A stretch of 32,000 bases of DNA, taken from positions 1 through 32,000 of the forward strand of contig JAFGBS010000001.1 in the NCBI GenBank assembly GCA_016933055.1, in the 5' to 3' direction. This document shows, in pieces, positions 5,716 to 28,345 of this stretch. The translations under genes and the position numbers were made by a program. Positions within the stretch are counted from its first letter, which is position 1. Every line of letters starts with the position of its first letter. The DNA is from Promethearchaeota archaeon. Its GTDB lineage: Archaea > Asgardarchaeota > Lokiarchaeia > Sigyniarchaeales > Promethearchaeaceae. A model generated the notes under the pieces. That model saw only the letters and a program-made list of their open reading frames with translations. It was not told where the DNA came from and searched no databases.

Positions 5716-6918
5716 TCATAAGGCATTAATTATTTTGTTTTGGGAAGTTAAAACACCGTGCATAATACTCTCGAATACTTCTTTTACTCCCTCAGCGTTC
5801 TCGGGTAAGGATCTTTTCGCATTAATCAATGCAAGTAAAATTTCATTAATTCCTCGCAAAATCATATCAGGAGAGTACCACGGTCTTTTGGAACCCCACC
5901 ATTGAGTACAAGAGTGTAATCCTCTATCCAAAAAATTGCGAGCATTTCTATAGATGTCTTTTTTCTCATTATCCATTGAATTTTCGTATTTTGCAGCAAG
6001 ATGGACAGCTGTGGTGGCAAACATAATTAAGCGATATAATTCTATATGGAGCTCATTTCTCTTATCCAGCCATAATGGGAACGGATTATCTTGAGTTAGA
6101 TCAAAACTCATAGTAGACCATGAGGAAGCTTTAGGGACTTGTGGCTCTTTTTTTGGATATTTATCAATAATTTCAGAGATGGTACACATAGAGATGTCGT
6201 TTCGGTATTCTAATGATTGGAATAGTGGTTTGAGGAATTTATTAATACCATTCTTGACGTGATGCCCGAACGTTTCTCCGTCCATAGCTAAAATCACATA
6301 ATAATCCTTTTTTATGTTCCGATAATTTAATCGATTCACGAAATGGTCAATGGTGTTGATCTTGTTAAATCCCACATCATTGGAAATAAGATCATCTCGA
6401 AAAACTAATTTTAAGGAGGTATTAGAATGGAAGGATATGAAATCCGTTGGAAATACGGGTAAGGTGTTCGCTATCCCGGACATTATCACCCAATCGAACC
6501 CCATTTTACGAATAGGGTCGTAAATTTCTTCACTTACAGCCATCTCTGGAGGGAAAAATCCTCTAGGTGCATAAGCACCGAAAAAACGCTTATTGGTTTC
6601 ATTGTTTAGTTTAATCTGACGAATAACTTCTGGTTCAGGTAGTAGAGGAAGAAGTGGATGGAACTTTCCAGAACCAGTGAACTCAATCTGACCTCGGTTT
6701 GCTAGTGTACCAATAGAATTAATGACATCATTAAATCCATAATCGTTTAATTGTTCTGTAAGGGTTGCATTAATATTTAGGGTTATTTTCGCCGATGGAT
6801 ACTTGTTGAGAGTTTCTAAGATAGGCCGATAACTTTCATTCACAATTTGCTTTAATACTGGAGGGATCTGAGTTGGAGGTTGATAAATATGAAATAAAAA
6901 TGCAAAATGGATCGTCAC
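5716..6918 (-). CDS. Glycoside hydrolase family 57 (alpha-amylase/amylopullulanase-like)
   Basis: GH57 conserved regions are present: HIYQP, FHPLLPL, FFPPEMA (nucleophile Glu) and AMDGETFGHH (acid/base Asp). The GTG start overlaps the upstream TGA (GTGA, 6915-6918). Confidence 0.9.
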   Translation of the reverse strand: MTIHFAFLFHIYQPPTQIPPVLKQIVNESYRPILETLNKYPSAKITLNINATLTEQLNDYGFNDVINSIGTLANRGQIEFTGSGKFHPLLPLLPEPEVIRQIKLNNETNKRFFGAYAPRGFFPPEMAVSEEIYDPIRKMGFDWVIMSGIANTLPVFPTDFISFHSNTSLKLVFRDDLISNDVGFNKINTIDHFVNRLNYRNIKKDYYVILAMDGETFGHHVKNGINKFLKPLFQSLEYRNDISMCTISEIIDKYPKKEPQVPKASSWSTMSFDLTQDNPFPLWLDKRNELHIELYRLIMFATTAVHLAAKYENSMDNEKKDIYRNARNFLDRGLHSCTQWWGSKRPWYSPDMILRGINEILLALINAKRSLPENAEGVKEVFESIMHGVLTSQNKIINAL

Positions 6919-9578
6919 AAGAATGTATTCTTTTTAATAATATTAAAATCTACAATTTCGTTTTTTTCTTTTCCATTGAAATGAAGAGTTAGATGCAAAT
7001 CATCACTGTAAACTGCTCGAATTTTAAAGCTGCCTTCCTTTTCATTTCCTATTTGGGAAAATTGAACCCTTAACTTAGAATCAGATTTTAATAGCCGTTT
7101 TGTGATATCCTTTTTTCCTAAAAGCGCCTTTACAGGCTTCTTGGTTAGGATTAATTCCAAAACATTTCTACTACCCCGAAAGTGGGACCCTGTTATGGAG
7201 TATTCCGTGTTTTCATTATTAACAATCTTTCTTACCTCGTTTAACTCAGAAGTGCATACACATAAACAAATATCTTTGTTGATAGTTTTGTTAAAACTCC
7301 ATAGTGAAGAACTTCTTTCCAAAATAGTTACATCCTTAATAACAAAACCATTCACATTTTGAGTGTTTAACCAAATATCATTAAAGATAATTTCGATATT
7401 TTCAAACTTATTATGAGTTAAATTAGTTACTGTCACAAATTCTTCTTTATCTTCAGTTCGCAATCGCGTTACGGTTAGACCTTCCGAATGGATAATTTTT
7501 CTTGGTGATATTTTCAACTGTTCGATAACTTGCTTGAAATATTGTAATCCTTCCTCATCAGGCAAGGGAATGAATCCAAAATGATAAATTTGACCCCCAT
7601 TTTTCATGTTACGATGGAATGCATAGACTTTTTTTGATTGCTCGGATACATCAGTAGCAAGAACAATATTTTTCGTACCTTTGGACTGGTTTTTTTCCGT
7701 ATCCTCTAAATGATAGGAATAAATATTTCGATAGGAATTGAAATTCGTTTTCTCCAGTCTAATACTTTTGGGATTCTCTTTTTTCTGAATACTAGCGTGA
7801 TAAAGTGAAGATAATGTATCATCTGATCGCATATGTCCATTTCTAGTCGGTATATCATAAAAAGAGAGAATTATCCCGCCTTCTTCCGCATAATGTTTCA
7901 GTAAATTCATACTCGTTTTATCTAGAAAGGAAAAAAATATTGCAACGACTATTTTGTGTTTTTTTAAGTCTTCTATAGAACTAGTTTGTAGATCTATCCA
8001 TTTGGGATGATATCCTAATCTAAGGAATATTTCATATTCCGGAAACGGTGATTCTTGTAAAATCTGCTGGGGATCTGGGATAAATCCAAATTTAGAAGTA
8101 TTAAAATTCAAGCGTGAATAAGGATGGTAATACAATACTGCAATATCACCATCGTACACTTTTTCAGCACCTAAAAGTTTTTCACCCCTTACTTGTATAT
8201 AATCGGAATTTGATTCAATCACATCGAAGCTTGGATTTTTTTGCCCTTGAATCCCTATAGGAGCATTATAATCATAAAAATCTCCGATTAATTCTACGAT
8301 TAAAGATTCCCCATTAAAATTTACGCTTTTCTTAAGAATTGAATAGGTATCACCTGACAATTCCGTTTTTGGACTACGCCCTCCTACTCCCATGTAATAA
8401 TTTATTCCTTTAACTCCATTTCCAAGCACCAAGCGGGTTAAAAGATGCACAGAATTTGGTGAAATAATTTCATCTGGAATCCCAATTTTCAGTTCTGGGA
8501 TCAGACAAAGTAGCGGTATTTGAGTTTTTATCAATTCAATATTTGCTTCTAATAGGTATTGATTCTCTTCGATTTGCTTAAGAAAATCATCATGGACGTC
8601 CAAACCCACCGCAATTTTAGTTTTATACGCCTTATAATATGAATTAGCATTTACAGGGGAGGATAAATAAGGGACATTCACCATATAAGGTAAGTACAAT
8701 CCTTTCTTACGGAGAATATAACTCAAGGATGAAATATATTCTTCATTAATTTTCTCTTTAAATTCCATCCAATCTAAATTCCGCATAAATTCTCCCAAAA
8801 TTCTAAATTCATTTTGAGAATTAATTCCATCCTCTTGAGTTCTAGAAGTAGGTGGTTCAACATGATCGAAACTTAGAAAATTTTGACTATACGTTGAATT
8901 TACAGTATCGATATCTCGGTATTTTTCTTTTAAAAATGTCTTATAAAATTCAAGAGCAACGGGATTGTAATCCCCTTCAAAAATACTTTGGTTTTTGCTA
9001 ATATTGATTTCATGATCTAGTTGCAATAAAATTAGACCACCATGAGGGTATAAATGTCTGCGCAACACTCCAGCGATCTTATCCATATATGAATCAACTA
9101 GCCGGAGAAAAGTAGGAGAGAGATATGATATATTTTTATAAGGTTTTCTTAGGGATTTTTTATCCTCATTTTGGCATAATATCTTCGGATGATCTTTTAT
9201 CACCCATGATGGAATTCCTCCATACTGTAAATCCGAATTAATCCACGGTCCTACACGCACGATCAAATAAAATCCTTTATTTTCGCATAAATGCAAAAAA
9301 TGATCTAAATCCTTGGAAGGTGAAGTGATATCGAATTTACCTGCTTCCTCCTCATGATAACTCCAAAAAATACTTGTAGATATTGTATTTAATCCTAAAG
9401 TTTTGGCTTTGGTCAATCGATCCTCCCATTCATCGGATGGTATCCGGAAATAATGAATTTCACCTGAATTTATAAAAACAATCCTAGAACCAATTTGAAA
9501 CCGGTTTTTTCGTATAATTATTCCGTTTGATCTAATTTCTTCTTGCATTTGTAATGAACATCCTAAATCCATGATCAA
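6915..9578 (-). CDS. GH35/GH42-like beta-glycosidase (beta-galactosidase / GlmA-like architecture)
   Basis: SGEIHYFRIP...W.DRL.KAK.LGLNTI...WSYHE, VRVGPWI..D...GGIP.W, QLDHE, IPE. A GH42-type trimerisation segment follows (LKKHKIVV...LKHYAEEGG). Confidence 0.85.
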   Translation of the reverse strand: MIMDLGCSLQMQEEIRSNGIIIRKNRFQIGSRIVFINSGEIHYFRIPSDEWEDRLTKAKTLGLNTISTSIFWSYHEEEAGKFDITSPSKDLDHFLHLCENKGFYLIVRVGPWINSDLQYGGIPSWVIKDHPKILCQNEDKKSLRKPYKNISYLSPTFLRLVDSYMDKIAGVLRRHLYPHGGLILLQLDHEINISKNQSIFEGDYNPVALEFYKTFLKEKYRDIDTVNSTYSQNFLSFDHVEPPTSRTQEDGINSQNEFRILGEFMRNLDWMEFKEKINEEYISSLSYILRKKGLYLPYMVNVPYLSSPVNANSYYKAYKTKIAVGLDVHDDFLKQIEENQYLLEANIELIKTQIPLLCLIPELKIGIPDEIISPNSVHLLTRLVLGNGVKGINYYMGVGGRSPKTELSGDTYSILKKSVNFNGESLIVELIGDFYDYNAPIGIQGQKNPSFDVIESNSDYIQVRGEKLLGAEKVYDGDIAVLYYHPYSRLNFNTSKFGFIPDPQQILQESPFPEYEIFLRLGYHPKWIDLQTSSIEDLKKHKIVVAIFFSFLDKTSMNLLKHYAEEGGIILSFYDIPTRNGHMRSDDTLSSLYHASIQKKENPKSIRLEKTNFNSYRNIYSYHLEDTEKNQSKGTKNIVLATDVSEQSKKVYAFHRNMKNGGQIYHFGFIPLPDEEGLQYFKQVIEQLKISPRKIIHSEGLTVTRLRTEDKEEFVTVTNLTHNKFENIEIIFNDIWLNTQNVNGFVIKDVTILERSSSLWSFNKTINKDICLCVCTSELNEVRKIVNNENTEYSITGSHFRGSRNVLELILTKKPVKALLGKKDITKRLLKSDSKLRVQFSQIGNEKEGSFKIRAVYSDDLHLTLHFNGKEKNEIVDFNIIKKNTFL

Positions 9579-14637: not shown

Positions 14638-16377
14638 TTGATTTTATATGGAAATCATTTCATGATCTTTGATCGGTTATGTGAAGATATCGGAAAATAT
14701 CGTCGTATTTTACCTTTTAAAGTTCAGAGTACCTATATTCCCTTAAAAAATGAAGAAAAAATCCTTCTCGCAGCTGATATCATTACTGAAAAAGGGTCCC
14801 TTATTGAACGTCCCACTTTCTTGCGAATAGGACACCGTTGGCGCGAAAAAGAAGACATAAAACAATATAATCCCCTAATCCAAGAAGGATTCAACTTTGT
14901 CAAAGTTGATGTAAGAGGAACTGGTTCGTCTTTCGGAAACCGGGAGATTCCATGGTCTCCATCTGAGATACAAGAAATTAATGATATTGTTCATTGGATA
15001 ACAGAACAACCATGGTCAGATGGAAAAGTTATACTTATTGGATCTGATTATTCTGCTACTGTATCAGAACTCGCAGTGACTTGTAATAACAATTCTATTT
15101 ATGCTTATATTTCGATTGGCAATGGTTTTAACCTTTATTCGGACGTAATGTATCCTGGGGGTCTCTTTTTAGAATCCTACGTTAAGAAATGGAGTGAGAA
15201 AAACAAATTATACGAGAACACTAAAATCAAACCATTAAATGACCCTCTTTATCATTCAAACGCTTCTATAATTAAAGATCAACATACAATGAATAAAGAT
15301 GTGATGGATCTGTTTTCCTCTATCGAGTTTAGCGATCAATTATTGGCTGAAACTAATATTCCTTTGACTACTATATGTATTTCTGCTCATTCCGATGAAA
15401 TATATAGGAACAAATTCCCTAAGTTTAGTGTTGGTTCTTGGTTTGATGCGAAAACAGCTAACTCCGTTATCCATCGATTTCTAAATTATTCTAAACCCTT
15501 TATTGGTGTAATTGGATGCTGGAAACAGGATGCTAACCCATTGAATCTTCTGAAGGATCCCGAATCACGATTAAAATCTACTAATTTACTGCTATTACTT
15601 GAATTTATACGCTTTGCCCGGAAATCTATAACTAATCCAACAAGTATTCCAAAATTATTATATTATTATACCAATAGAGAAAACAAATGGAAAGTTACTA
15701 ATACGTGGCCACTTCCAAATCAGGTCATTATGCCACTGTATTTAGCTGGGAAAAATCAACTGAATATGAGAATATCTTCTAAAGCTGAAAAAAGTATATA
15801 CAAAGTTAATTATTCTACAACAACTGGTACCGCCAACCGATGGCAAGCTCCTTTTGGTGATAAAATTTCTTATAAAAAGCGTGCGAAGCAAGATAAGAAG
15901 TGCTTGATATTTACCAGTCAAGCATTATCTGAATCGATTGAAATCACGGGACATCCTATGATTACATTGCATTTTAGTTCGACTCATAAAGATGGAGCAA
16001 TATTTGTGTATCTAGAAGTAATATACCAGAAACATGTATATTATCTATCAGAAGGGCAATTACGATTGATACTTTGGAAAGAATCCAGCAATCCGTATTA
16101 TAAAACTCCTATTCCCTATCGAAGTTTTGGAAAAAATGACGTGTCGTTTCTTCAACCGAATTCAATCTATAATATACGAATCCCCTTAGAACCAATTTCT
16201 GTGTTATTACCGGAAAAAAGCAAGATACGAATAGCAATTGCAGGTGCTGATGCTGGCAACTTCAAACTCTATCCGGAACCAATGAAACCACCTCCAGAAT
16301 GGAATATTTATCATAACACCGAATTTCCATCTCTTCTTGAATTACCCGTAATACCGAGGGATAATATAAAGAAATAA
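14638..16377 (+). CDS. CocE/NonD (peptidase S15-like) alpha/beta-hydrolase homolog with a degenerate catalytic triad
   Basis: LAADI, VDVRGTGSSFG, WITEQPWSDGKV, and the C-terminal jelly-roll motifs FTSQAL...EITGHP...EGQLR. The nucleophile elbow reads GSDYSA instead of GxSYxG, and the His site reads GCWKQ instead of GPWxH. Confidence 0.85.
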   Translation: MILYGNHFMIFDRLCEDIGKYRRILPFKVQSTYIPLKNEEKILLAADIITEKGSLIERPTFLRIGHRWREKEDIKQYNPLIQEGFNFVKVDVRGTGSSFGNREIPWSPSEIQEINDIVHWITEQPWSDGKVILIGSDYSATVSELAVTCNNNSIYAYISIGNGFNLYSDVMYPGGLFLESYVKKWSEKNKLYENTKIKPLNDPLYHSNASIIKDQHTMNKDVMDLFSSIEFSDQLLAETNIPLTTICISAHSDEIYRNKFPKFSVGSWFDAKTANSVIHRFLNYSKPFIGVIGCWKQDANPLNLLKDPESRLKSTNLLLLLEFIRFARKSITNPTSIPKLLYYYTNRENKWKVTNTWPLPNQVIMPLYLAGKNQLNMRISSKAEKSIYKVNYSTTTGTANRWQAPFGDKISYKKRAKQDKKCLIFTSQALSESIEITGHPMITLHFSSTHKDGAIFVYLEVIYQKHVYYLSEGQLRLILWKESSNPYYKTPIPYRSFGKNDVSFLQPNSIYNIRIPLEPISVLLPEKSKIRIAIAGADAGNFKLYPEPMKPPPEWNIYHNTEFPSLLELPVIPRDNIKK

Positions 16378-16542
16378 TGCATTTTTCTTTCTCAGTTCTT
16401 TCTCTATTTTCATATTGTTTAATCACAGAATCAAGTGTAAAGTATCAACATAGAGAACATTCATAACTTATTAAATTCTCTATAAGGAGAAATTTCTTTA
16501 GGTGCTCTTGCAATATCGATTATATACTAATTAGAAGTCGAG

Positions 16543-17319
16543 ATGGAGAATGTGGTGACGACAAATACATCCAATCGTAGAATATTTAATAAGCAATCGT
16601 TTTATTCCGAGTTGGTACCATATTCATCTAAAGACGAGGCAAAAACTCTTGTTGATCAAATAAAATCACTTGATAAAGCTGTTAGAGCCCGTATCATTGA
16701 AAAATCTGATGGATTTTTTGTTTATTTCGATGAAAAATCTTTTAATGATATTAAGAAAGGAAAGTTCCAGGATATTATAAAGAAAATCGAAAAAGAGTCA
16801 CTTAATAAACCCAAATCCAATCAAAAACTAACAAAACAATCAAAATTGGATGAAGATGCAATTATATCACGTCAAATAACATTACCACAATTTCTTATGA
16901 ACCGTTTGAGTAAAAAAGCTTCATCCATTTTACAAAAAAGTGTGTTAGAAATACAAAAAAGTTCAAAAAAAGATTTGGAACAAGAATTAGACATAATTCG
17001 TTCTGAACAAGTGAAATTTGACATTCGTTACGAACATGAGAAAGAGATGTTGAACTATATCAACCGCATGGCAAAAGTTATAGAAAATCGCATTCGTGAG
17101 TATGCTGATCAAGAATCTGAGATTTTTATGAAGGCGAATGTCATCCAGCCGATAAAACGAGGTGAATTTCAAAAACAACTTTCTAAATTGGAGAAAAAAG
17201 GGGTAGATCAAGTAGCCTATCTGATCTATAAGAAACTTGGTAGGAAAACTAATCGATATCCTTATAAACAGAACCATTTAATAGATCGAATTCGGAATTA
17301 TTTAACTAACGAAGTGTGA
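16543..17319 (+). CDS. Hypothetical basic protein (SPOR-like N-terminus, possible RHH, coiled coil)
   Basis: 258 aa ORF, co-oriented with the next gene and separated from it by 17 bp. Domain guesses come from pattern only. Confidence 0.65.
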   Translation: MENVVTTNTSNRRIFNKQSFYSELVPYSSKDEAKTLVDQIKSLDKAVRARIIEKSDGFFVYFDEKSFNDIKKGKFQDIIKKIEKESLNKPKSNQKLTKQSKLDEDAIISRQITLPQFLMNRLSKKASSILQKSVLEIQKSSKKDLEQELDIIRSEQVKFDIRYEHEKEMLNYINRMAKVIENRIREYADQESEIFMKANVIQPIKRGEFQKQLSKLEKKGVDQVAYLIYKKLGRKTNRYPYKQNHLIDRIRNYLTNEV

Positions 17320-17336
17320 TAGGATAGAGCAATCAA

Positions 17337-17741
17337 ATGGAAAAAATTAAAAAATATCTTGAAAAAGATGGTATCCGTTATTTACAACGAGATGAAGATC
17401 TAGTAATTCCATATAAAATTGATAAGCTTAAATTCCATATTATTATCACTAAGAGGGTAAAATGGGTGGTTGGTACCGCCTTAATTGCCAGTTTTGATGA
17501 AATTCCCGATGGAGTACGATCAGAATTATATAAAAACCTATTGCATGCGAATTATCATTTACCCGAGATAAATTATGCTATAGATTTAGAAGGAAATGTT
17601 TTCTGTACGGTGGATATGGAGCATAGCGTCACAAATTTTGAAAGTTTTTGTTCAGAATTCTATGCAATTCCAAATGGGATAAAATTTTTTCTTGAAAAAA
17701 TTGCACCTCCGTTGAAATTGAAGCTATCGGGACAAGAATAA
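17337..17741 (+). CDS. YbjN-like (T3SS-chaperone fold) protein
   Basis: 134 aa. The pattern ...SELYKNLLHANY.LPEINYAIDLEGNVFCTVD is typical of YbjN-domain proteins. Confidence 0.7.
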   Translation: MEKIKKYLEKDGIRYLQRDEDLVIPYKIDKLKFHIIITKRVKWVVGTALIASFDEIPDGVRSELYKNLLHANYHLPEINYAIDLEGNVFCTVDMEHSVTNFESFCSEFYAIPNGIKFFLEKIAPPLKLKLSGQE

Positions 17742-17823: not shown

Positions 17824-19020
17824 ATGAGATTTATGGAATTAGATGTATCAGAATGGAGTGCAGTAGTTCTGGCTGGGGGATTAGGGACCCGTCTCCTACC
17901 ATTAACGGCAAATATCTGTAAACCCATGGTGAAAGTTTGTAATCGTGCTATGGTAGACTATTGTATAGATCATTTGCGGTTTGCTGGAATAAACAAAATC
18001 GTAGTATGCGTTAAACATATGGGAGATGAATTGAGAGAGTATTTATGGAACCAATGGGATCCTATCATAAAATCTAATCCAGCATTCACCTTAGAAATCC
18101 CAAAAAACGATAGTTATGGGACCGCAGATGCTGTACGAAAAGTATGGGATCTCATACAGACGGATAATTTTATAGTATCGATGGCGGATATTGTTACAAA
18201 TTTACCTCTTAAGGAATTTATGAAATTTCATACAGAAAAACATGCTGAAGCAACAGTCTCTATGAAACCAATTGATGAATTTGCCTCAAAGTACGGTAAT
18301 ACAGTGCTCAATGCAGATGGTCGAGTGAAATTGTTTTTGGAAAAACCGAGCGCACATGAAATCTTCATATCTAGTTTGACTCAACAGCGGGATATGGTTT
18401 TACCCACCATAAACACAGGTATTTATTGTTTTCAAAGGGATATTGCTCAACAAGTGATAATGGAAACGGAATTTAATGATTTTGGGAAGGAAATTTTCCC
18501 CTATTTATTGGAAAATAATTATAAATTATTTGGATTTAATGAACAATATTATTGGATGGATGTGGGAAATCCAAAAACCTATTTATGGGCAAATTGGGAC
18601 ATTTTGCGTGAATACGGGTGGCCAATTCTCCCACAAGGAGAGGATTCTGGTAAAAAGATATGGACTCAAGAGTCATTATCCCTGCCATATAATAGTTATC
18701 TACATGATAGAGTTTGTTTGGGAAAAAATATTCATTTTGGTGAAAATGTTCGTATCAATTCTTTAACTGTATTAGGAGATAATGTAGTTATTGGGAATAA
18801 TTCCCTTATTGATCGATCTGTCGTATGGCATGATGTCACCATCGGTCAAAATTGTATCATCGAACAATCCGTGATTGCTAATGGGTGTAAAATAGGAAAT
18901 AATGTAACAATTCGATCTGAATCGATGATAGGACCCCATGCAGTTATAGAAGATGATGCAGTATTAGACTCCCGAACCGTCCAATCAAATGAAAATGTAA
19001 AAAAAGAAATTAAAGGTTAG
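17824..19020 (+). CDS. NDP-sugar pyrophosphorylase (GMPP/GlgC-like nucleotidyltransferase plus left-handed beta-helix)
   Basis: VLAGGLGTRLLPLT...KPM, GTADAV, ADIVT, FLEKPSAHEIF, INTGIY, DFGKEIFP, YWMDVG, followed by C-terminal hexapeptide repeats. Confidence 0.92.
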   Translation: MRFMELDVSEWSAVVLAGGLGTRLLPLTANICKPMVKVCNRAMVDYCIDHLRFAGINKIVVCVKHMGDELREYLWNQWDPIIKSNPAFTLEIPKNDSYGTADAVRKVWDLIQTDNFIVSMADIVTNLPLKEFMKFHTEKHAEATVSMKPIDEFASKYGNTVLNADGRVKLFLEKPSAHEIFISSLTQQRDMVLPTINTGIYCFQRDIAQQVIMETEFNDFGKEIFPYLLENNYKLFGFNEQYYWMDVGNPKTYLWANWDILREYGWPILPQGEDSGKKIWTQESLSLPYNSYLHDRVCLGKNIHFGENVRINSLTVLGDNVVIGNNSLIDRSVVWHDVTIGQNCIIEQSVIANGCKIGNNVTIRSESMIGPHAVIEDDAVLDSRTVQSNENVKKEIKG

Positions 19021-19034
19021 ATCTAATCGTTAAT

Positions 19035-20498
19035 TTAGATTCTCTCTCTTAATTGTTTTGTTTTGGTTTCATTTGCTTTTATCTTTGACAAGCTTTTTAT
19101 TTTTGATTTTAAAATTGTCTCGATTTTTTTAATTAAAGTCTCTGAAGTTTCCGGATCGGGAGTTTCCGAGGAAATAATCATAGAGTTTCGATGTAGGCTT
19201 GGTCTTATCATTACCCATGACGCTTTATATTTATTTTCTTTAACCCCTTCTTGGAATATGATCTTAATTCCAATTAATGTGTCCAGAATTAACAAGTTCT
19301 CGTTTTTTAATTCGTCTTTAATAATCTGGCGGAAATTATATAACATATCGGGATCAACATTGATAGATCGGTACACTTTTATGGATTTAGGAAAATTTCG
19401 CACTAAGGAACTCAGAGGTTCATCTCGATTTGATAGAACTTCCAATAATTTTAATAAAGTGAAAGTACCATCTGGAAATGGACCGTAAATCGGAAAATAG
19501 AATTTGAATGTGTCTGCAGCACCAAAAACACCTCTCTCTTGCCTGAGATGAGAGGAAATCTCCCCTGGAAGGTTGACTACCCGTAGTAATTTATAATTAA
19601 AATTTTCTGCATACTCATCGACAATTCTGGAACAACAAGATGTTGTAATAATTGGGCTTTCTTTGTTTTTCAAGATATAATCATCATTAGATATAATTAA
19701 CATGATTAAATCTTCAAAATCGACCAGTGTTCCAGTTTCATCGAACACAAGGAGACGAGAACCATCCGAATCGAAAATCACTCCGATATCAGCATCTGCA
19801 GCCTTTATGATCGCCGAAGTATCTCTGATGGAATTCAAATCCGGAAAAAGTCGATCATCTAACGCCCTATAATAGGTATTCAAAGCGATTACTTGTACAT
19901 TAAGCGAATTTAGAATTTCTGGGGTGATGTCTCCAGTAGGACCATAACTACAATCCACGACAACCTTGAGATTTGCAGAGGAAATTGATTTTCGATTGAC
20001 GAATTGGGGGATTGCTCCTTTATATACATCGAAGGTTTGAGTAATATCAGATAATGTACCAATTGATAGGGGATCCACTCGTTCTATTTTGTTTTTTTTA
20101 AAAATCTGATTGATAGAATGGAGTTGACTTACTTGAAACTCGACACCACTTGGGTCATAGAACCGTATTCCAGTATCTCCCTCATATACATGACCAGATG
20201 ACAAATATACGCCACCATCCGCACCGAATCTACGAATACAAAATTGAAGTAATGGCACGGGGGCGAAATGTAAATTTAGTATGTTAATACCTGTACTCAT
20301 AACGCCCGATAAATAAGCTCGTTTTAGCATACGTGAATTATTAAAATAATCTCGACCCGCAACTATTACTTTATACCCATTATTATGAAGGTAAGTTCCG
20401 TGAGATGCCCCTATCTTAGCAGCTAATTCGGGAGTGAGTATATGATTGGCTCGTGCAATAATTCTTCCTTTATCAATTATTTCTGTTAAGTCGTCCAT
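19035..20498 (-). CDS. Phosphoglucomutase/phosphomannomutase-like protein with degenerate catalytic motifs
   Basis: The four-domain alpha-D-phosphohexomutase layout is present (TPELAAKIG, GRD, SRMLKRA, VVVDCSYG, ADIGVIFDSDGSR, GIKI). The phospho-Ser loop reads LSSGHV (canonical TASHNP) and the metal loop reads DSDGSR (canonical DxDxDR). Confidence 0.88.
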   Translation of the reverse strand: MDDLTEIIDKGRIIARANHILTPELAAKIGASHGTYLHNNGYKVIVAGRDYFNNSRMLKRAYLSGVMSTGINILNLHFAPVPLLQFCIRRFGADGGVYLSSGHVYEGDTGIRFYDPSGVEFQVSQLHSINQIFKKNKIERVDPLSIGTLSDITQTFDVYKGAIPQFVNRKSISSANLKVVVDCSYGPTGDITPEILNSLNVQVIALNTYYRALDDRLFPDLNSIRDTSAIIKAADADIGVIFDSDGSRLLVFDETGTLVDFEDLIMLIISNDDYILKNKESPIITTSCCSRIVDEYAENFNYKLLRVVNLPGEISSHLRQERGVFGAADTFKFYFPIYGPFPDGTFTLLKLLEVLSNRDEPLSSLVRNFPKSIKVYRSINVDPDMLYNFRQIIKDELKNENLLILDTLIGIKIIFQEGVKENKYKASWVMIRPSLHRNSMIISSETPDPETSETLIKKIETILKSKIKSLSKIKANETKTKQLRERI

Positions 20499-20558
20499 TT
20501 TTTCTCAAGTTCACAAATTTTGTAGGATCCCGATATTACGTATGTGGATATTAATACT

Positions 20559-20579
20559 AATATGGTTATCATATTTAAG
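20559..20579 (+). promoter_or_regulatory. Putative TATA box (TATTTAAG) overlapped by the inverted repeat AATATG-N5-CATATT
   Basis: The inverted repeat spans 20559-20575. The TATA-like element at 20572-20579 lies about 30 nt upstream of the ATG at 20608, in a 109-bp divergent intergenic region. Confidence 0.35.
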
Positions 20580-20607
20580 CTATGGAATCTATTGGGATCT
20601 CATAAAA

Positions 20608-22323
20608 ATGACTCAAGAACCATTAGGGTATTTTAGTTTTGTTTTACATAGTCATCTACCTTGGGTATTGAACCATGGAGTTTGGCCGCATGGAACGGAT
20701 TGGGTAAATGAAGCCGCTGCTGAAACATATCTCCCAATCCTTTTAGAGCTTTATAAGCTAGTAGACGCAGGATACTCCCCAAAATTAACTATCGGATTAA
20801 CTCCTGTATTGTGTGAGATGTTGACACACGGAAGTTTTACAACTGGTTTTATAGACTATATTGATGGGAAAATCACTGCAGCAGAAGATGACTATGAAGA
20901 TTTCACTCGGAACCAATATCGTCCCGAGCGCATTAAATTGACAATGTATTGGAAGGAATATTACCTAAAAATAAAGGAAACTTTCATAAATCGGTTTAAT
21001 AAGAACATTGTCAATGGATTTAAACAACTTCAAGACAAAAATCTGCTGGACATTATTACTTGCGGAGCAACACATGGATATAGTCCTCTATTATCAAAGG
21101 ATAGCTCTTTAGACGCCCAATTTGGAATTGCTGTAAATAATTACAAAAAACATTTTGGCCAAGCCCCTACTGGGGTTTGGTTACCGGAATGTGCTTATCG
21201 CCCTGGTTATAAATGGAAAAATCCCGTTTCAGGGGTGGAATATGAAAGACCTGGAATCGAATACTTCCTTGCTAATAATGGGTTACGTTATTTCTTCATT
21301 GATACAGCATTATTATTAGGTGGATTAAGTCAAGGCGTCTATGCTGCTCGTTTTCCTCTTCTTAAAGAACTGTGGAAACAATTTGCTAAGCAATATAAGG
21401 AATTACCAAGCCATTTTGAGAAAACTCCTTATGAGTCCTATATAGTCTCCTCCCAGAGTGCGGAGGCTCCAGTTGGGTTTTTTACTCGGGATCAAAAAAC
21501 TGGAATATTGGTATGGAGTGGAGAACATGGATATCCTGGGTGCGCGGAATATTTGGATTTCCATAAGAAGCATTACCCCGGAGGACTCCGCTACTGGAAA
21601 GTCACCGGTTCGAATGTAGATCTCGGTAATAAAATGCTCTATTGGGTAGATGATGTTTCTAACAAATTGGATGAAAATGCAAGCAATTTCGTCGATGTTG
21701 TGAAAGGTGTTCTACGAGAACATAAAAACAAGACAGGTAATCCCGGAATCATTGTTGCACCTTACGATACGGAACTATTTGGTCATTGGTGGTTTGAAGG
21801 TCCGTGGTGGCTGAATCGGGTGCTTAAATGGATGGAAGATGACCCCGAGATCATTTTAACCAATACGCGTCTATATATGGAGCAATATCCCCCCAATAAA
21901 GTCTGTCAAATTACAGAGGGTAGTTGGGGACAAGGGTCCAGTCATTGGGTTTGGTTAAATGAATGGACCATGTGGACATGGGAAAAAGTGTACGAATGTG
22001 AAGCGAAAAACGAAGAAATTGTCACAAGATATTATCTATCTGAAGATCCGAACGTGATTCGTCTTCTGAAACAAATGGCACGAGAATTGCTCCTTTTGGA
22101 GAGCAGTGACTGGCAATTTTTAATAACAACATGGTCAGCACGGGATTACGCGGAAAACCGAGTTGCATTACATTACGAAAACTTCAATCGAATTTACCAG
22201 ATATTAACCGAATATACGAATGGGAATACTATACCCGAAGGTGAATGGGCATTCCTAGGAAAAATTGAAGCGAACAATTCCCTGTTCCCCGAACTAGATC
22301 TTTATCCATTCATAAAAAAATAA
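20608..22323 (+). CDS. GH57 1,4-alpha-glucan branching enzyme (DUF1957 / TK1436-type)
   Basis: HSHLPWV, CGATHGY.PL, WLPECAY (nucleophile), APYDTELFGHWWFEGP (acid/base), ARELLLLESSDWQF. The start is revised to ATG 20608 (571 aa) because the track's start at 20446 overlaps the divergent gene. Confidence 0.93.
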   Translation: MTQEPLGYFSFVLHSHLPWVLNHGVWPHGTDWVNEAAAETYLPILLELYKLVDAGYSPKLTIGLTPVLCEMLTHGSFTTGFIDYIDGKITAAEDDYEDFTRNQYRPERIKLTMYWKEYYLKIKETFINRFNKNIVNGFKQLQDKNLLDIITCGATHGYSPLLSKDSSLDAQFGIAVNNYKKHFGQAPTGVWLPECAYRPGYKWKNPVSGVEYERPGIEYFLANNGLRYFFIDTALLLGGLSQGVYAARFPLLKELWKQFAKQYKELPSHFEKTPYESYIVSSQSAEAPVGFFTRDQKTGILVWSGEHGYPGCAEYLDFHKKHYPGGLRYWKVTGSNVDLGNKMLYWVDDVSNKLDENASNFVDVVKGVLREHKNKTGNPGIIVAPYDTELFGHWWFEGPWWLNRVLKWMEDDPEIILTNTRLYMEQYPPNKVCQITEGSWGQGSSHWVWLNEWTMWTWEKVYECEAKNEEIVTRYYLSEDPNVIRLLKQMARELLLLESSDWQFLITTWSARDYAENRVALHYENFNRIYQILTEYTNGNTIPEGEWAFLGKIEANNSLFPELDLYPFIKK

Positions 22324-22349: not shown

Positions 22350-22883
22350 CTAATATTGTTTGTCTTGGGCGTATTTCCACATAACTTTGGTTAAAGTTTC
22401 GAAAGCTTCCTCTACATTAAAGCTTTCTTTTGCACTAACCTCTACATAGGAACTGCATCCCCGAGATCTGGCTATATCGATTGCTTCATGCTTTTGCACT
22501 CGTCGCAAATGTGCTAAATCAACCTTTGAACCCACCAACATGATCGGGATATTAGGATCATAATTCCGTAAGATAGGTAACCAATCATCGAAATGGGATA
22601 AAGTAAGCATATTCGTTACCGAAAACAAAAACATGATTCCATTCGCTCCTTTTACATAGGTAGGTAGTAAGAATCTAAAGCGTTCTTCTCCTCCAAAATC
22701 CCAAATTTGCAGTCTTACCGTACCTAAGCCATCTAATGTTAAGTCTTTGATGAAGAATTCTACTCCTATCGTTATTCTGGTGTCAGTTTTGAAAATACCC
22801 GTAATAAATTTCTGGGTAAGACTTGTTTTTCCTACTCCTCCATCACCAGCAATGACTAGTTTAAACACTTTCTCGTAGCTCAT
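22350..22883 (-). CDS. Rab/Ras-like small GTPase (Asgard type)
   Basis: G1 GDGGVGKTS, G2 TIGVEF, G3 WDFGGEERF, RabF-like RFRFLLPTYVKGA, G4 GSKVD, G5 EVSAK. There is no C-terminal Cys. Confidence 0.95.
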   Translation of the reverse strand: MSYEKVFKLVIAGDGGVGKTSLTQKFITGIFKTDTRITIGVEFFIKDLTLDGLGTVRLQIWDFGGEERFRFLLPTYVKGANGIMFLFSVTNMLTLSHFDDWLPILRNYDPNIPIMLVGSKVDLAHLRRVQKHEAIDIARSRGCSSYVEVSAKESFNVEEAFETLTKVMWKYAQDKQY

Positions 22884-23112: not shown

Positions 23113-25263
23113 TTAGACTCGATTCTTGCGACGAGTAATCAAAATTGCCGCAACAGCTACAAGGGTGATACCCGCAATTACTAAGATAACTGCCCAGAAG
23201 CCTGGATTATCCCATTGCATGAATACACTGAAGGTAGGATCATGCCAGAGTTTATCCCCAGATCCGTTAAAGGTCGGATAGTTTACTGCGTAGATCAAGA
23301 TTGATGAACTGATGTTCAAAAATCCCCCTGCTTCGAAACTTTGAGATGGTGCATTAGGATCCTCATAACGTACTTTAGCGCTGGCATCGAAATCCAAGAA
23401 TGCTAATGGAATGGTACACGTGCTTGCTGGATAAGAAGTTCCCGGGTCTCCTTGTATATATTCAGGTCCAGCAATATCAACTGCTGCAACAGGTAAATCA
23501 CCTGTGTAATCTCCCACCTTAATTGTACCACTTGCATTTATAGAACCGGAGTGAACGGCTTCATCTGCTAATCCATTTTGTGCAAGCTCCAACTCTTCGA
23601 CAGTCTCTACCTCAAAGTGAAGGCGGAAATGCAAAATAGTGCTTACGTAGATTACAGAGAAATCCATATTAGGATCTTGTAAAGCTATATGATTTGGACC
23701 TGTTCCACCATTCCATGCAGAGAAGTACTGATCCAGTTTGATGATTCCTTTCGCCATCTGCACTTCATCATAGTCTGGGACTAACCCCGAATATTCCCCT
23801 GCTTCTGCGGCGGTAACCACTTCTTTTAGTTTGGGTGTGAAAGTAAATCCTAATTCGATATAATCCAAATTTTCAAAGACTGGAGAAGATAAATCTGAGG
23901 GACTCATTCCGATTGGAACTGCTACCATTTGCACAGTTTGCAATTCAATACTCCACGTGTATCCATCACCTTCATCAGTCAGTTCAGGTTCGTTGAATAC
24001 GATATCACCAATCCCTCCAAACGCAAAGTAATAACGTGCTTCAGAACCGGTGATGATTTCGCTTTCTACTTCACCCTCGACGATTGTAGTGCGTGTAACA
24101 TCAGGAACGTCATTTGAATTCTCATCTTCATATGCAATAAAGCCCATGAGGGAGTGTGTCATGATATAAATTTCGATGTCAAGGCCTTCGAAGATTTCTG
24201 CTATTCCCATCCCAGGAAGCGGATTAGGTTCTTCAGATTCTCCAAGTGTAGAGTTTAATGCTTGGATAATTGCCGGAACGTTAATGTAAATTTGGAATGT
24301 CTTAAACCAAATTTCGATCAAATTGAAGGAAAATCGACTCCATTCCCGACTAAATTCACCATCTTCTACGTCTTCAAGTAACCATAGCATGAAATCATCA
24401 TGATTTGCAAGTGCTGATGCATTCCAAGCAATAAGATCAGATGGAGGAATTGGATCGTCATCCTCTAAATTCCAATCATCCCAAATTTTATACTCCTTGG
24501 TTATTGTATAATCGCTAGAAGTATCCATAGTGTATTTTTCCCAAGTGATCATGTTGAGTACAATCAATTCGTCTCCATTGATGTTATCATTGATATGGAA
24601 TATCAAGTATGTAATAGCAGATAGAAGTTCACCAGCGATTTTCTGTCCTACTTCAACCGAATCTTCTTCCGTCCAAGTCGATGGGTCACCTTTCGCTTCA
24701 ATAGCTGCCTTAACATTCTGTGCTGCAGTGATGACCTTGTTAATAGCATTTATGAAGGAATCATTATTATCCCAAATCAAAAATACTACAGCGGCACCGG
24801 AGGTATATGTTATGTTTACTGTTCCTGTTCGGTTAATTGTCACATATGGGTGTTCACTTTGACCGAGTGGAATAGCTGTGTTGTATTCCCGGATCCAATA
24901 CAATTCCTCTCGACCATCGTAGGTTACATTATAGGTTTCAGTTTCCTCGTAGGAGGCACTCAATTTGTAAACATGTTTTATTTCATCTTCTTCAAAGGTG
25001 AAATCAAAAATATTCAAAAATAAGATCTTGAATACTTCCCCTAATGCACGACCAGAGGGACCAAGACCTTCAAGCATTCCAAAAACACCGCCTAAGGCAT
25101 TAAATAATCCATCTGGCATGGCTGCAATATCTGCTGGATCTTCAGATTTCCAATCGAATCCCCAACCGTCCCCAGGTCCCTGGGAGACAGCGAATGCTGG
25201 GATTGCGAGTAAAGCGCTCAAAACCATCAGAGAGCAAATAATACTAGTCTTAATTTTTTTCAT
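23113..25263 (-). CDS. Secreted, C-terminally anchored acidic surface glycoprotein of unknown function
   Basis: The start is revised to ATG 25263 (716 aa), which gives a signal peptide MKKIKTSIICSLMVLSALLAIPAFA. It has a C-terminal TM helix plus a basic tail (FWAVILVIAGITLVAVAAILITRRKNRV) and 9 N-X-S/T sequons. Confidence 0.85.
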   Translation of the reverse strand: MKKIKTSIICSLMVLSALLAIPAFAVSQGPGDGWGFDWKSEDPADIAAMPDGLFNALGGVFGMLEGLGPSGRALGEVFKILFLNIFDFTFEEDEIKHVYKLSASYEETETYNVTYDGREELYWIREYNTAIPLGQSEHPYVTINRTGTVNITYTSGAAVVFLIWDNNDSFINAINKVITAAQNVKAAIEAKGDPSTWTEEDSVEVGQKIAGELLSAITYLIFHINDNINGDELIVLNMITWEKYTMDTSSDYTITKEYKIWDDWNLEDDDPIPPSDLIAWNASALANHDDFMLWLLEDVEDGEFSREWSRFSFNLIEIWFKTFQIYINVPAIIQALNSTLGESEEPNPLPGMGIAEIFEGLDIEIYIMTHSLMGFIAYEDENSNDVPDVTRTTIVEGEVESEIITGSEARYYFAFGGIGDIVFNEPELTDEGDGYTWSIELQTVQMVAVPIGMSPSDLSSPVFENLDYIELGFTFTPKLKEVVTAAEAGEYSGLVPDYDEVQMAKGIIKLDQYFSAWNGGTGPNHIALQDPNMDFSVIYVSTILHFRLHFEVETVEELELAQNGLADEAVHSGSINASGTIKVGDYTGDLPVAAVDIAGPEYIQGDPGTSYPASTCTIPLAFLDFDASAKVRYEDPNAPSQSFEAGGFLNISSSILIYAVNYPTFNGSGDKLWHDPTFSVFMQWDNPGFWAVILVIAGITLVAVAAILITRRKNRV

Positions 25264-25621
25264 TTTAAATCGCTCTTGTTTGTTTAAAAATTTTAAGACA
25301 ATGAAAATGTCTGAAGATAATAAGACAAAATTCACCTAAAAATAAATTCGTTCGAGGCAACTAGAAATTATACGGTACGGAATAACAAAATAAAAAGAGT
25401 CGATACTATGTACAATTTAACTACTCTGGAAGGTATACATAGAAACCTTCAGTCAAAGTCATAAATAATCTGTAAAATAGGCGTTTGAATCGTGGAGGTC
25501 ATAGATCTACTCCTTTTCTCAATCTTAATCGCTTTTAGGTAAATATCTTTCAGAAAAAAAAGATCTGCGGACAAGAATAATATAAATAAAAAAAGAACTT
25601 GATTTCAAAGAAAGGGACGGA

Positions 25622-26962
25622 TTATAATCCTAATGTATCTAACCCATATTCTTCGAGAGCATACTTTTTTAGAGCTTTCCACTGTGCCTTACTCGTCCCA
25701 TAGTACTTGAACAATGCAATTCCTAATCCAAAATCAAACGTTCGCATCTGTTTTAACATTTCTTCCACATTGCACTCCACAGAATTCGTTATAGCTAAAA
25801 TTGCTTGGTTATTGAATTCTTTCATACGGTTTTTCATATTTAATATGGAATATCTATATACTAACCATGCAAGGAAACCCCACCATAAGCCATCATCTCG
25901 TGTCCCGGTCAAGTAGGGATAAATCATCGGCGATGCAGAATCCATATAAGCACCCAATTTAGTCCAATTTTGTCCTAAACGATTCCGGGTGAATAATTTC
26001 GGACCAGGTAACGAAAACCAACCTACAAGGCAATCTGAATCTATATTTTTAATACGTTCAGACAGTTTTTGCCCATAGGATGCAATTGTATCTTCCTTAA
26101 AATCATACCATTGGTTACTTTTTAATATCGTTCGAGGATCCCCGTATTTTTTAATAAATTTTGAAACACAGCGTTCACAACAACAAATATCCGTAAAGGA
26201 CCCATCATATCGGATATAATCAGCAAAAAAGGCCTCGATTTTGTAATTTTTCACAACTTCTTCTGCAAGATCCACTAAATAGTCAACGTGTCCACTATTG
26301 GGACACATAAATGAAGTCGTCGGTACATATCCTTTGCCACGAGCACCTCGGGCAGCCCCTTGTTTGGCATCTATTTTATTTTGGAGAAAAGGTATTTTTT
26401 CTAACACATCGGAAAAGTTTTTCTCCGTAGGGATATCGACTCGCATTTCACCTTCACAGCGAGTGGTAGAATCTCCCGGATGATATTTTGATTTAAAGGG
26501 TTCTCCGTTCTTATTATAATCAGTATGATAACCATATCCTCCATGAATGCTGACTCGATCGGGATAAATATGTCCTTGATAAGCATCATTCATAGAAGTC
26601 ATTGAAACCATAATCCGGATGTTACTATCTTTGCCAGCATCAACAAACTCCCCGAGAATATCACGATTCGTTGGATTCCATCCAATTTTGGTATTCCACA
26701 AGCATGCTCCATCTGTATCTTTAATAACTACACCAAGAACGTTAAAATGATGCTCTTCTAAATGCGTAATTATTTCTTTAACAGGTATTTGCTCTGCAAA
26801 TTCATAGTCTAATTTTCGAAATCCTGCCGGACCTCGTACTGGCATCAATCCCATTGCGAAGACTTTATCTGCTTTGAAACTCTTTTGGGTTTTTTCAATA
26901 AACTCATCTGGGGGGGTCCAATATTTTTTCCAAAAATCCTCTCCAAATTTATTTGATTTCAT
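25622..26962 (-). CDS. Putative glycoside hydrolase (GHL10/GHL6/GH29-like TIM barrel)
   Basis: VVIKDTDGACLWNT...RDILGEFVDAG...IRIMV, then FMCPNS...YKIEAFFADYIRY...CCCERC..KF. There is no signal peptide. Confidence 0.65.
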   Translation of the reverse strand: MKSNKFGEDFWKKYWTPPDEFIEKTQKSFKADKVFAMGLMPVRGPAGFRKLDYEFAEQIPVKEIITHLEEHHFNVLGVVIKDTDGACLWNTKIGWNPTNRDILGEFVDAGKDSNIRIMVSMTSMNDAYQGHIYPDRVSIHGGYGYHTDYNKNGEPFKSKYHPGDSTTRCEGEMRVDIPTEKNFSDVLEKIPFLQNKIDAKQGAARGARGKGYVPTTSFMCPNSGHVDYLVDLAEEVVKNYKIEAFFADYIRYDGSFTDICCCERCVSKFIKKYGDPRTILKSNQWYDFKEDTIASYGQKLSERIKNIDSDCLVGWFSLPGPKLFTRNRLGQNWTKLGAYMDSASPMIYPYLTGTRDDGLWWGFLAWLVYRYSILNMKNRMKEFNNQAILAITNSVECNVEEMLKQMRTFDFGLGIALFKYYGTSKAQWKALKKYALEEYGLDTLGL

Positions 26963-26977
26963 ACTAGATTATCTCCA

Positions 26978-28132
26978 TCATTCTAATGCTTTTAAGCGAT
27001 GAATCGCTTTCATGTCACTTTCGGTAATTTCGTGATTGTATGCGATTTGAGCTAATAATGAGTCCATGGTCAGATAGGTATTTAGCTCGAATTCAGGAAG
27101 AAAATTTCTTCGGTGCAACAACGTTACATTATACATCGAAAATCGATCTTTTCTCCCAGGAATCACCAGGCATCCATCTACCCTATTGGTGAATTTACCT
27201 AAATCTGAATCTTCAAAAGAGGTAAATCCAAAGATGTTCATACCTGAAATAAATGCTTGTAAGCAATAATTTAATGTTTGAGAGGTAGAACCCGATCCTG
27301 ATGTAACAATTGCGAGGTCTCCCTCCTTTCGCAAATCCCAATGCCCCATCGAAATTACTCGTAAATCTTTTACCACTTTTCCCCCTACTTGTTTATGTAA
27401 ATGTCCATACCGTATCGCGGCTACATGATTAATAATGCTATCTCTGCCGACACCTTGGAAATAGACATGACTTTTATTTTTTGGATGGAGATAGGGATCA
27501 ATAACTCCAATGAATTGAAGCAATGAATCGAGATGATCCTCAAAATGATCAACAGAATGCTCAAACAAGTCTAATAACGCTTGAGAATGCATCTGAAATT
27601 TACGATTAGCTTCTCCCACAGTGTCATTCACGGAACTACCAATGCAAGAACCAATAACTGCTGAACAAAATTCAAATTCGGTTCCTAATGGGGCATATAC
27701 CGCGTTTCTCTTTTGAGATGGGTTTAATATTAAGACTGTATCGGGAAATTCTTCTAGTAATTGTGTATTTTGGGTCATCCCTATAATATTTAATCCATCT
27801 TCTTTAGCGGATCGCGCATGTTTCAAAGGGGATCCTGAACCCGAACCCGAATTAAAAAAGAAAATATCTCCCTTTCGCCATGGTCTGACATTTGCATTGA
27901 TTGCAGGGAAGATAATTGGAAATCCATTATGTTCTAGGCAATCTTCAGTTAATAACATAGATTGCAAAGATCGTCCTTGCCCATCAACAATAATGGTTCG
28001 ATTCTTTTTTCTCGTGTTAATCAAAAGCTTAAAAATATTCTTTAATTGGTCATAATCGAGAGATTTTAGACTCTCTTTAACGCAATTCATTAAATATTTG
28101 TATGTATCAAAAAAGATCTTAAGGCTGGACAT
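26978..28132 (-). CDS. Tandem SIS-domain sugar-phosphate isomerase (6-phospho-3-hexuloisomerase-like duplication)
   Basis: Two HxlB-like halves: DGQGRS..SGSGS..APLGTEFE and QGVGRD..SGSGST..IPGR..PEFE..DMKAIH. ATG 28132 is preferred over TTG 28141. Confidence 0.82.
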   Translation of the reverse strand: MSSLKIFFDTYKYLMNCVKESLKSLDYDQLKNIFKLLINTRKKNRTIIVDGQGRSLQSMLLTEDCLEHNGFPIIFPAINANVRPWRKGDIFFFNSGSGSGSPLKHARSAKEDGLNIIGMTQNTQLLEEFPDTVLILNPSQKRNAVYAPLGTEFEFCSAVIGSCIGSSVNDTVGEANRKFQMHSQALLDLFEHSVDHFEDHLDSLLQFIGVIDPYLHPKNKSHVYFQGVGRDSIINHVAAIRYGHLHKQVGGKVVKDLRVISMGHWDLRKEGDLAIVTSGSGSTSQTLNYCLQAFISGMNIFGFTSFEDSDLGKFTNRVDGCLVIPGRKDRFSMYNVTLLHRRNFLPEFELNTYLTMDSLLAQIAYNHEITESDMKAIHRLKALE

Positions 28133-28345
28133 TATTTTCAACTTACAAAATACTATTAGGTAGTATCCATTTGAAGAACTCTATTAGGGGGGAATTAATA
28201 TTTCTAAAGTCATCAATAAGAGAATTCTTGAGGTGTGCAATAAAAAGGTTCATATAACAATGCACTAAATTTTTAAAAATTCACACAAAATTAAAAAATC
28301 TGCAATTTTTACTAAAGGTATACATTTTGGGAAAATAGAAAAACA

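Follow-up and report, generated by a model that had tools for sequence, protein, structure and literature searches.

The DNA examined here, referred to as the window, is a stretch of 32,000 nucleotides from the forward strand of contig JAFGBS010000001.1 of a Promethearchaeota archaeon (assembly GCA_016933055.1). It carries three genes that together are a candidate module for glycogen synthesis. The first encodes a nucleotidyltransferase with a left-handed beta-helix (NTase), the second a protein related to phosphoglucomutases (PGM) and phosphomannomutases (PMM) that we call PGM-like, and the third a putative GH57 branching enzyme (Table 1). The NTase and PGM-like genes meet tail-to-tail, and the PGM-like and GH57 genes diverge from a short AT-rich spacer. 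An initial annotation made from the letters of the stretch had described this layout, and its coordinates proved exact when the open reading frames (ORFs), stops, and starts were read. The NTase stop codon is TAG at 19018–19020 and the PGM-like stop codon is TAA, on the complementary strand, at 19035–19037. Named close homologues come from metagenome-assembled genomes of Promethearchaeota and from Promethearchaeum syntrophicum and Lokiarchaeum ossiferum. Orthologues from the same genus are 72% (NTase), 84–85% (PGM-like), and 85% (GH57) identical to the window proteins, and for that reason we take all three genes to be real.

Table 1. Positions of the three module genes and of the two intervals between them in the window.
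Feature	Position	Strand	Basis
NTase gene with left-handed beta-helix, 398 aa	17824-19020	+	ORF; Pfam domains
Gap between convergent stops, 14 bp	19021-19034	.	Read from sequence
PGM-like gene, 487 aa, start at 20498	19035-20498	-	ORF; Pfam domains
AT-rich divergent spacer between PGM-like and GH57 genes, 109 bp	20499-20607	.	Read from sequence
Putative GH57 branching enzyme gene, ATG at 20608	20608-22323	+	GH57 and BE_C domains

The NTase is built from a Rossmann-like nucleotidyltransferase domain (PF00483, 148 bits against a cut-off of 21.2) followed by a left-handed beta-helix (LbH_EIF2B, 76.5 bits, above cut-off). The motifs GGxGxR..P.T..PK, EKP, NxGxY, and WxDxG and the catalytic Asp are 100% conserved both in the clade of split proteins to which it belongs and in the fused clade described below, and the protein looks like an active sugar-1-phosphate nucleotidyltransferase. 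Its best NCBIfam match is the GlgC model TIGR02091 at 174 bits, short of the 424.9 bits that mark membership of GlgC, and the second best is the mycobacterial model man1P_GTase_Rv at 170 bits. The closest relatives of solved structure are GMPPB-type enzymes (7whr), plant GMPP, UDP-glucose pyrophosphorylase, and eIF2B-epsilon. Given such relatives and a GlgC match below the cut-off, specificity is not readable from the sequence. Within its own genome, the protein is nevertheless the most GlgC-like nucleotidyltransferase. The match to LbH_EIF2B covers residues 278–380, the beta-helix, and solved eIF2B-epsilon and GMPPB chains are matched as well. This resemblance may be relevant to the prokaryotic origins of the gamma and epsilon subunits of eIF2B.

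The PGM-like protein contains the Pfam domains PGM_PMM_I, II, and III, all above their cut-offs, and matches the Pyrococcus horikoshii PGM/PMM (1wqa) in sequence with an E-value of 1.5e-44. An AlphaFold2 (AF2) model has a mean predicted local distance difference test score (pLDDT) of 92 and a predicted template modelling score (pTM) of 0.91. Foldseek searches with this model place 1wqa (E 1e-41) and 9du5 at the top. The protein is accordingly modelled as a complete four-domain phosphohexomutase fold. The four loops that support catalysis are altered in each case. Compared with 1wqa, the phosphoserine loop ITASHNP is replaced by LSSGHVY, with Gly at the position of the catalytic Ser; the metal loop DGDADR is replaced by DSDGSR, in which the third Asp is Ser; the sugar loop GGEENG reads GAADTF (within GAADTFKF); and RPSLHRN (within IRPSLHRNSMI) takes the place of the phosphate loop RPSGTEP. 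The fold of a catalytic mutase is present, and working phosphoserine, metal, sugar, and phosphate loops are not. Judged by these substitutions, the PGM-like protein is a predicted pseudoenzyme, unable to run the phosphoserine mutase cycle, and the label of pseudo-phosphomutase given to it in the initial annotation is borne out by the alignment.

Loss of the catalytic Ser extends beyond the window. Across 112 aligned sequences, Ser is kept in all 18 canonical enzymes, in 7 of 31 split Asgard proteins (where Gly is commonest), and in 42 of 63 fused proteins (67%). The fusions that keep Ser have it in a changed context, with the flanking His-Asn and the DxDxDR pattern lost. Within the split clade, the nucleophile position varies between G, S, V, A, H, and T. 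The protein is otherwise well conserved: 13 columns are invariant and 35 nearly invariant over 34 divergent members, and identity to other genera of the same family (f1 in the survey described below) and to family f2 is 45–50%. The within-genus identity, which exceeds that of the NTase, the invariant columns, and the confident AF2 fold all argue that the gene is not decaying. Two canonical PGM/PMM-type mutases with intact loops are encoded elsewhere in the same genome, on contigs C11 and C27.

The third protein matches the GH57 domain (PF03065, 99 bits) and the branching enzyme C-terminal domain BE_C (PF09210, 82 bits). It also matches NCBIfam branching enzyme models from Thermococcales (474 bits) and Thermus (419 bits), in both cases below the equivalog cut-off (474 against 1000 bits for the former). 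An ORF opening with TTG at 20446 was considered as an earlier start and rejected as a false extension of 54 aa, because family models and homologues align from Met55 on. A second GH57 gene lies elsewhere in the window (400 aa; 5716–6918, minus strand). Its product is 34% identical to a 427-aa GH57 protein that stands beside GlgA elsewhere in Asgard archaea, and its start is overlapped by 4 bp by a gene for a GH35/GH42-like glycosidase (6915–9578, minus strand).

The two intervals between the genes contain candidate transcription signals. Archaea use oligo-T terminators. For the plus-strand transcript there are T-runs at about 19052–19068, within the 3' end of the PGM-like gene, and for the minus-strand transcript there is a T7 at 18998–19004 (the complement of the A7 in GTAAAAAAAG), within the 3' end of the NTase gene. 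These runs could end each transcript. In the divergent spacer, TATA-like stretches lie approximately 30–35 nt 5' of both the PGM-like and the GH57 start codons, and we infer a promoter role for the spacer. Upstream of the NTase gene, a co-oriented string at 14638–17741 (plus strand) encodes a CocE/NonD-family hydrolase and two proteins of 258 and 134 aa with no family match. The string stops 82 bp before the NTase gene and is kept in a second genome of the genus (locus L010), and the NTase gene may be co-transcribed with it.

A HMMER scan of 1.8 billion representative sequences with the PGM-like protein ranks stand-alone Asgard homologues first, followed by proteins of ~830 aa that are matched over residues ~385–830. 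These longer proteins are fusions in which an NTase module, a left-handed beta-helix, and a PGM-like module form one chain, and they are the nearest relatives beyond the split clade. The PGM-like clade itself comprises hundreds of Asgard clusters. The fusions derive from Helarchaeota, Thermoprotei, Deltaproteobacteria, Ignavibacteria, Caldisericota, Thermosulfidibacteraceae, and other groups. Where named, they are called 'mannose-1-phosphate guanylyltransferase/phosphomannomutase' or 'sugar phosphate nucleotidyltransferase'. At least 590 bacterial fusion loci were returned by a single scan of species-representative genomes, for which a six-sequence fusion alignment was used to locate loci. Among proteins of at least 854 aa, a length that the ~830-aa fusions do not reach, no fused close relative of the PGM-like protein was found. 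The window itself has two genes on opposite strands in place of a single ~830-aa polypeptide. The initial annotation had named four signature strings of the fusions, EKPS..EIF and DF.K..FP.LL in the NTase and TPE.A.K.G and SRM.KRA..SG.MS.G in the PGM-like protein; all four are present and match the fusion consensus.

Separate trees were built for each half with FastTree and IQ-TREE. In the PGM-like tree, the canonical PGMs, the 31 split Asgard proteins, and the 63 C-terminal halves of fusions each fall on one side of a branch, with support of 98–100 in FastTree and 99–100 in the Shimodaira–Hasegawa-like approximate likelihood ratio test of IQ-TREE. In the NTase tree, for which three paralogues from the same genome served as the outgroup, the split proteins have support of 99–100 and the fused proteins 96–98 with both programs. 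On these trees, each window protein is sister to the matching half of the fusions, which upholds the earlier assignment of both halves to the fusion family (support 96–100). The order of Asgard families is nearly the same inside the two trees, and this match indicates that the two halves share one history. Since the split and fused proteins are reciprocally monophyletic, the trees leave undecided whether the common ancestor was fused or split.

By the same trees, the split is old and spans at least nine Asgard family codes. The tail-to-tail orientation is local, being confined to this genus (the window and genome G234) and, independently, locus L035. The initial annotation had offered fission plus inversion as one origin of the window arrangement. 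The age of the split clade speaks against a recent fission, and the inversion does hold, locally, for this genus and for L035. Asgard archaea have fused genes as well, namely in f21 and f10 and, as an additional copy, in genome G237. The latter genome has both a split pair (convergent and beside GlgA; L035) and a fused copy of 847 aa (L036). The two lineages can therefore coexist in one genome, and their roles may differ. In the window, a gene for a double-SIS protein resembling 6-phospho-3-hexuloisomerase lies at 26978–28141 (minus strand), and a single-SIS gene of this type consistently follows the fused genes on their 3' side in f21 and f10 (L041–L046, L065–L067).

We surveyed 301 Asgard genomes for the pair and compared gene order at 52 loci that carry the family; the codes for families (f1, f2, and so on), loci (L010 and so on), and genomes (G234 and so on) are labels of this survey. 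The NTase and PGM-like genes turn up in one shared set of 11 family codes. Among the surveyed genomes, those of f9 (0/76), f14 (0/19), f22, and f29 yielded no pair. PGM-like matches in f5, f9, f18, f23, and f28 (E 1e-41 to 1e-47) were set aside as canonical mutases from the tree placement of those sampled. These co-occurrences are to be read as a pattern and not as a statistic, as related genomes are not independent samples. At most of the 52 loci, the NTase and PGM-like genes adjoin or lie within one to three genes of each other, and their arrangement varies. They are in tandem with the NTase gene leading in f6, f20, f24, and f27 and with the PGM-like gene leading in the other f1 genera; they are convergent in this genus and in f3, and divergent at L029 and L051. 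In f2, a GH57 or GH13 gene stands between them.

The pair keeps company with enzymes of alpha-glucan synthesis. In f1 and f2, the PGM-like gene adjoins either the GH57 branching enzyme gene or a gene for a 1130-aa GH13 protein in its place, and the divergent pairing seen in the window recurs in both families. GH57 orthologues adjoin the PGM-like gene at most loci of f1, f2, and f7. In f3, f4, f7, and f27, the PGM-like gene adjoins GlgA, the 427-aa GH57 gene, and a GalT-like gene; this GlgA is bona fide, with 561 bits on TIGR02095. Across the survey, the GH57 branching enzyme is found only in families that have the pair, and the GT5 glycogen synthase largely co-occurs with it. The linkage of the two genes to each other and to alpha-glucan genes, on which the earlier proposal of a glycogen-precursor module depended, is thus seen across Asgard loci. 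The 1130-aa GH13 protein replaces GH57 exactly beside the PGM-like gene at L011, L013, L015, L021, L022, L031, and L032. In genera g2–g4 of f1, no GT5 match was found at E ≤ 1e-15, and these genera, with GH13 in place of GH57, may use a different glucan route. In f2 (L016, L018, L024, L025, L033, and others), the gene immediately 5' of the NTase gene, in the same orientation, is a distant GalT-like (HIT) gene of 437 aa. The encoded protein may be a nucleoside diphosphate (NDP)-glucose phosphorylase or an exchange enzyme of the same pathway.

Canonical GlgC (TIGR02091 at its cut-off of 424.9 bits) was found in none of the 301 Asgard genomes, and the same model matched eight control genomes. The genome of the window encodes a GlgA-like GT5, an alpha-glucan phosphorylase, an archaeal GlmU, and two other nucleotidyltransferases, and GlgC was not found in it. 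For bacteria, the initial annotation had mentioned fusion genes near GH57 and glycogen synthase genes. This applies to 14 of 80 bacterial fusion loci, which have GT5, GH57, or GalT genes, and fails for the other 66. In Geobacteraceae, the fusion gene, GH57, GalT, and GT5 form a co-directional, operon-like string in that order; the GalT gene of this string (L126, L128, L129, L142) is a true member of its family. Three other fusion-bearing bacterial genomes are without GlgC.

We consider it most likely, with a probability of roughly 0.55, that the pair is an NDP-glucose pyrophosphorylase with a non-catalytic mutase-fold subunit that replaces GlgC in a glycogen synthesis module. The three genes would together serve alpha-glucan (glycogen) synthesis. 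The NTase would make the NDP-glucose donor, presumably from glucose-1-phosphate, and so stand in for the GlgC that was not found in the Asgard genomes. The PGM-like protein would be attached to the NTase as a subunit without catalytic function, in the manner of the ~830-aa fusions, and could sense hexose phosphates or scaffold an oligomer, perhaps in a regulatory capacity. The GH57 enzyme would branch the glucan. Physical association of the two proteins is argued for by the natural fusion of the same modules through a short linker. In an AF2 model of a natural Asgard fusion (pLDDT 90.5, pTM 0.75), this linker comprises five low-confidence residues at 375–379.

What the PGM-like subunit contributes is a matter for more tentative wording. 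The modelled Asgard fusion, from f21, keeps the metal and sugar loops (DSDADR and GGEESG) and has Pro in place of the catalytic Ser, a combination that suggests ligand binding without turnover. The loops of the window protein are degenerate, which makes a role as a scaffold equally possible. It is conceivable, and we hold it with some doubt, that the module is an allosteric sensor or gate that responds to hexose phosphate, acts on NDP-glucose synthesis, and was recruited from the preceding step of the pathway. If so, the control that GlgC gets from its own allosteric site would have been reached a second time and independently, with Asgard archaea using a split two-subunit enzyme and many bacteria the fusion. 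The whole annotation class of 'bifunctional ManC/ManB' proteins (K16881) would then be wrong.

Several observations weigh against assigning the pair to NDP-glucose and glycogen synthesis. Among solved NTases, the nearest are of the GDP-mannose type (GMPPB, 7whr), along with one UDP-glucose enzyme, and none is GlgC. The NTase gene of the window runs in the same direction as three unrelated genes upstream of it and shares no transcript with the PGM-like gene. Vertical descent in common would by itself give mirrored trees, and such trees are no proof of physical interaction. The degenerate sugar and phosphate loops make canonical binding of hexose phosphate by the window protein doubtful. The phyletic pattern is also imperfect: GT5 occurs without the pair in f18 and f29, the Asgard families with fusions are mostly without GT5 (f10 0/5, f21 1/6), the 66 bacterial fusion loci that lack glucan genes are heterogeneous, and Geomonas has both a fusion and GlgC.

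Other explanations differ in what they make of the PGM-like protein. If existing names were right, the pair would be a split mannose-1-phosphate guanylyltransferase/phosphomannomutase that supplies GDP-mannose for glycosylation, with an active PGM-like mutase. JGI labels relatives with exactly this double name, the best solved relatives of the NTase include GMPPB and plant GMPP, its score on man1P_GTase_Rv comes close to that on the GlgC model (170 against 174 bits), and most bacterial fusion loci have no glucan genes. An active mutase is hard to reconcile with the absence of the phosphoserine from the window protein and most split members and with the degeneration of all four loops, in a genome where two canonical mutases of the PGM/PMM type already have their motifs intact. 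In Asgard archaea, the neighbouring genes encode glucan enzymes. The only genetic result found for the family is that disruption of SCO1388, the fused gene of Streptomyces, gave no GDP-mannose phenotype (PMC5982138). We regard the mannose assignment as improbable. We think just as little of the idea that the PGM-like protein retains a non-canonical activity, as a phosphatase, as a phosphotransferase with another nucleophile, or in glucose-1,6-bisphosphate chemistry. Among split members, 84% retain the His next to the lost Ser, two of the three metal-binding Asp residues remain, many fusions have Ser in an RRSPFDP context, and the protein is strongly conserved. This conservation does not extend to the nucleophile position, which is variable in the split clade; no conserved replacement nucleophile was identified, and neither the third metal ligand nor the sugar and phosphate loops remain. 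The loss of catalytic motifs could also mark a functionless, decaying relic, a view that conservation effectively refutes: the ORF is intact and predicted to fold confidently over its full length, the clade holds hundreds of clusters, and the identities and invariant columns given above are maintained over divergent members.

A further explanation keeps the PGM-like protein in glucan metabolism and detaches it from the NTase. It would act mainly with branching or other glucan enzymes, perhaps as a binder of phosphorylated glucan or of such an enzyme, and its proximity to the NTase gene would be historical. In f1, f2, and f7, the GH57 or GH13 gene is indeed its tightest and most constant neighbour, usually divergent from it; at several f7 loci, the NTase gene is 16–20 kb away with GH57 and GlgA still adjacent, and in the window the NTase gene belongs to another co-oriented string. 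We find this unlikely in view of the fusions, which join the PGM-like module to an NTase and never to GH57 at the bacterial loci (at least 590) and in several archaeal lineages. Families f24, f6, and f27 moreover keep the NTase and PGM-like genes in tandem without GH57, and the two genes share one phyletic distribution. On this evidence, we continue to favour an NTase with a mutase-derived subunit.

The remaining neighbours of the module lie downstream. A gene for a Ras-family small GTPase (22350–22883, minus strand) lies 26 bp past the GH57 stop codon, and Ras-like genes also flank the NTase/PGM-like pair at f1 loci (L011–L015) and f24 loci (L047–L049, L059–L060). A link of the pair to these GTPases was considered and set aside, as they are just 34–38% identical across loci and their orthology is unproven. 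Beyond are genes for a 740-aa protein without a family match (23113–25335, minus strand) and for a GHL6/GHL10-like putative glycosyl hydrolase (25622–26962, minus strand).

The way in which archaea, and above all Asgard archaea, produce and regulate the nucleotide-sugar donor for glycogen has hardly been explored, and reviews name no dedicated enzyme for it (PMC11046441, PMC12525153). The NTase/PGM-like pair is the best candidate in a phylum in which GlgC was not found (301 genomes). It also concerns a very large family whose annotation is that of a bifunctional mannose enzyme, yet whose sequences predict a mutase half incapable of that activity. As a regulatory design, attaching to an enzyme a pseudoenzyme that derives from an earlier step of its pathway would be unusual. 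The naturally split form lends itself to clean tests, with each protein expressed by itself and one titrated against the other. Our literature search found no paper characterising the fusion family, and among solved structures none covers both the NTase and PGM-like halves. Two genes that we considered in this regard, SVEN_3972 and SVEN_2781 (PMC5247666), are not attributable to the fusion from the text of that paper.

The closest known proteins are the fusions of KEGG class K16881 themselves, such as SCO1388 of Streptomyces coelicolor. They have the same signature motifs as the window proteins, and degenerate mutase loops accompany intact NTase motifs in both. Some of the fusions are encoded in glycogen-type operons, whereas the window has two genes on opposite strands. 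Ser is also lost more often in the split clade than in the K16881 fusions, 67% of which keep it in a changed context. As for the mutase fold, the archaeal PGM/PMM enzymes (1wqa, and 9du5 from Thermococcus kodakarensis) have the four-domain architecture in common with the PGM-like protein at 25–26% identity. Both are active and carry the loops TASHNP, DxDxDR, GEE, and RPSGTEP, each of which is altered in the window protein. The fold is known to serve as a partner or pseudoenzyme in GlmM, which inhibits the cyclase CdaA (7olh, 9g69), and in vertebrate PGM5, both of which are among the structural matches. Of these two, GlmM retains its enzyme activity and PGM5 belongs to the eukaryotic cytoskeleton, and neither pairs with an NTase.

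Functional parallels come from nucleotidyltransferases with impaired partners. In GlgC/GlgD of Firmicutes and the small and large subunits of plant AGPase (9xuk), the enzyme for the glycogen or starch donor, composed of an NTase domain and a left-handed beta-helix, likewise has a catalytically impaired subunit in a glycogen context, the role of such a subunit being only predicted for the window. The window NTase differs from GlgC/GlgD systems in scoring far under the GlgC cut-off (174 against 424.9 bits). GMPPA/GMPPB (7d72) and plant KONJAC/VTC1 (8yre), which include the closest solved NTases by sequence, similarly place a catalytic NTase under an inactive partner, with GDP-mannose as the product and no glucan context. 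In all of these systems, GlgD, AGPase, GMPPA, and KONJAC included, the partner is a paralogue of the NTase, whereas the proposed partner in the window is a mutase-derived pseudoenzyme from the preceding step. Nucleotidyltransferases with a pseudoenzyme partner are already known as a kind, to which the putative mutase-derived partner would add a new form.

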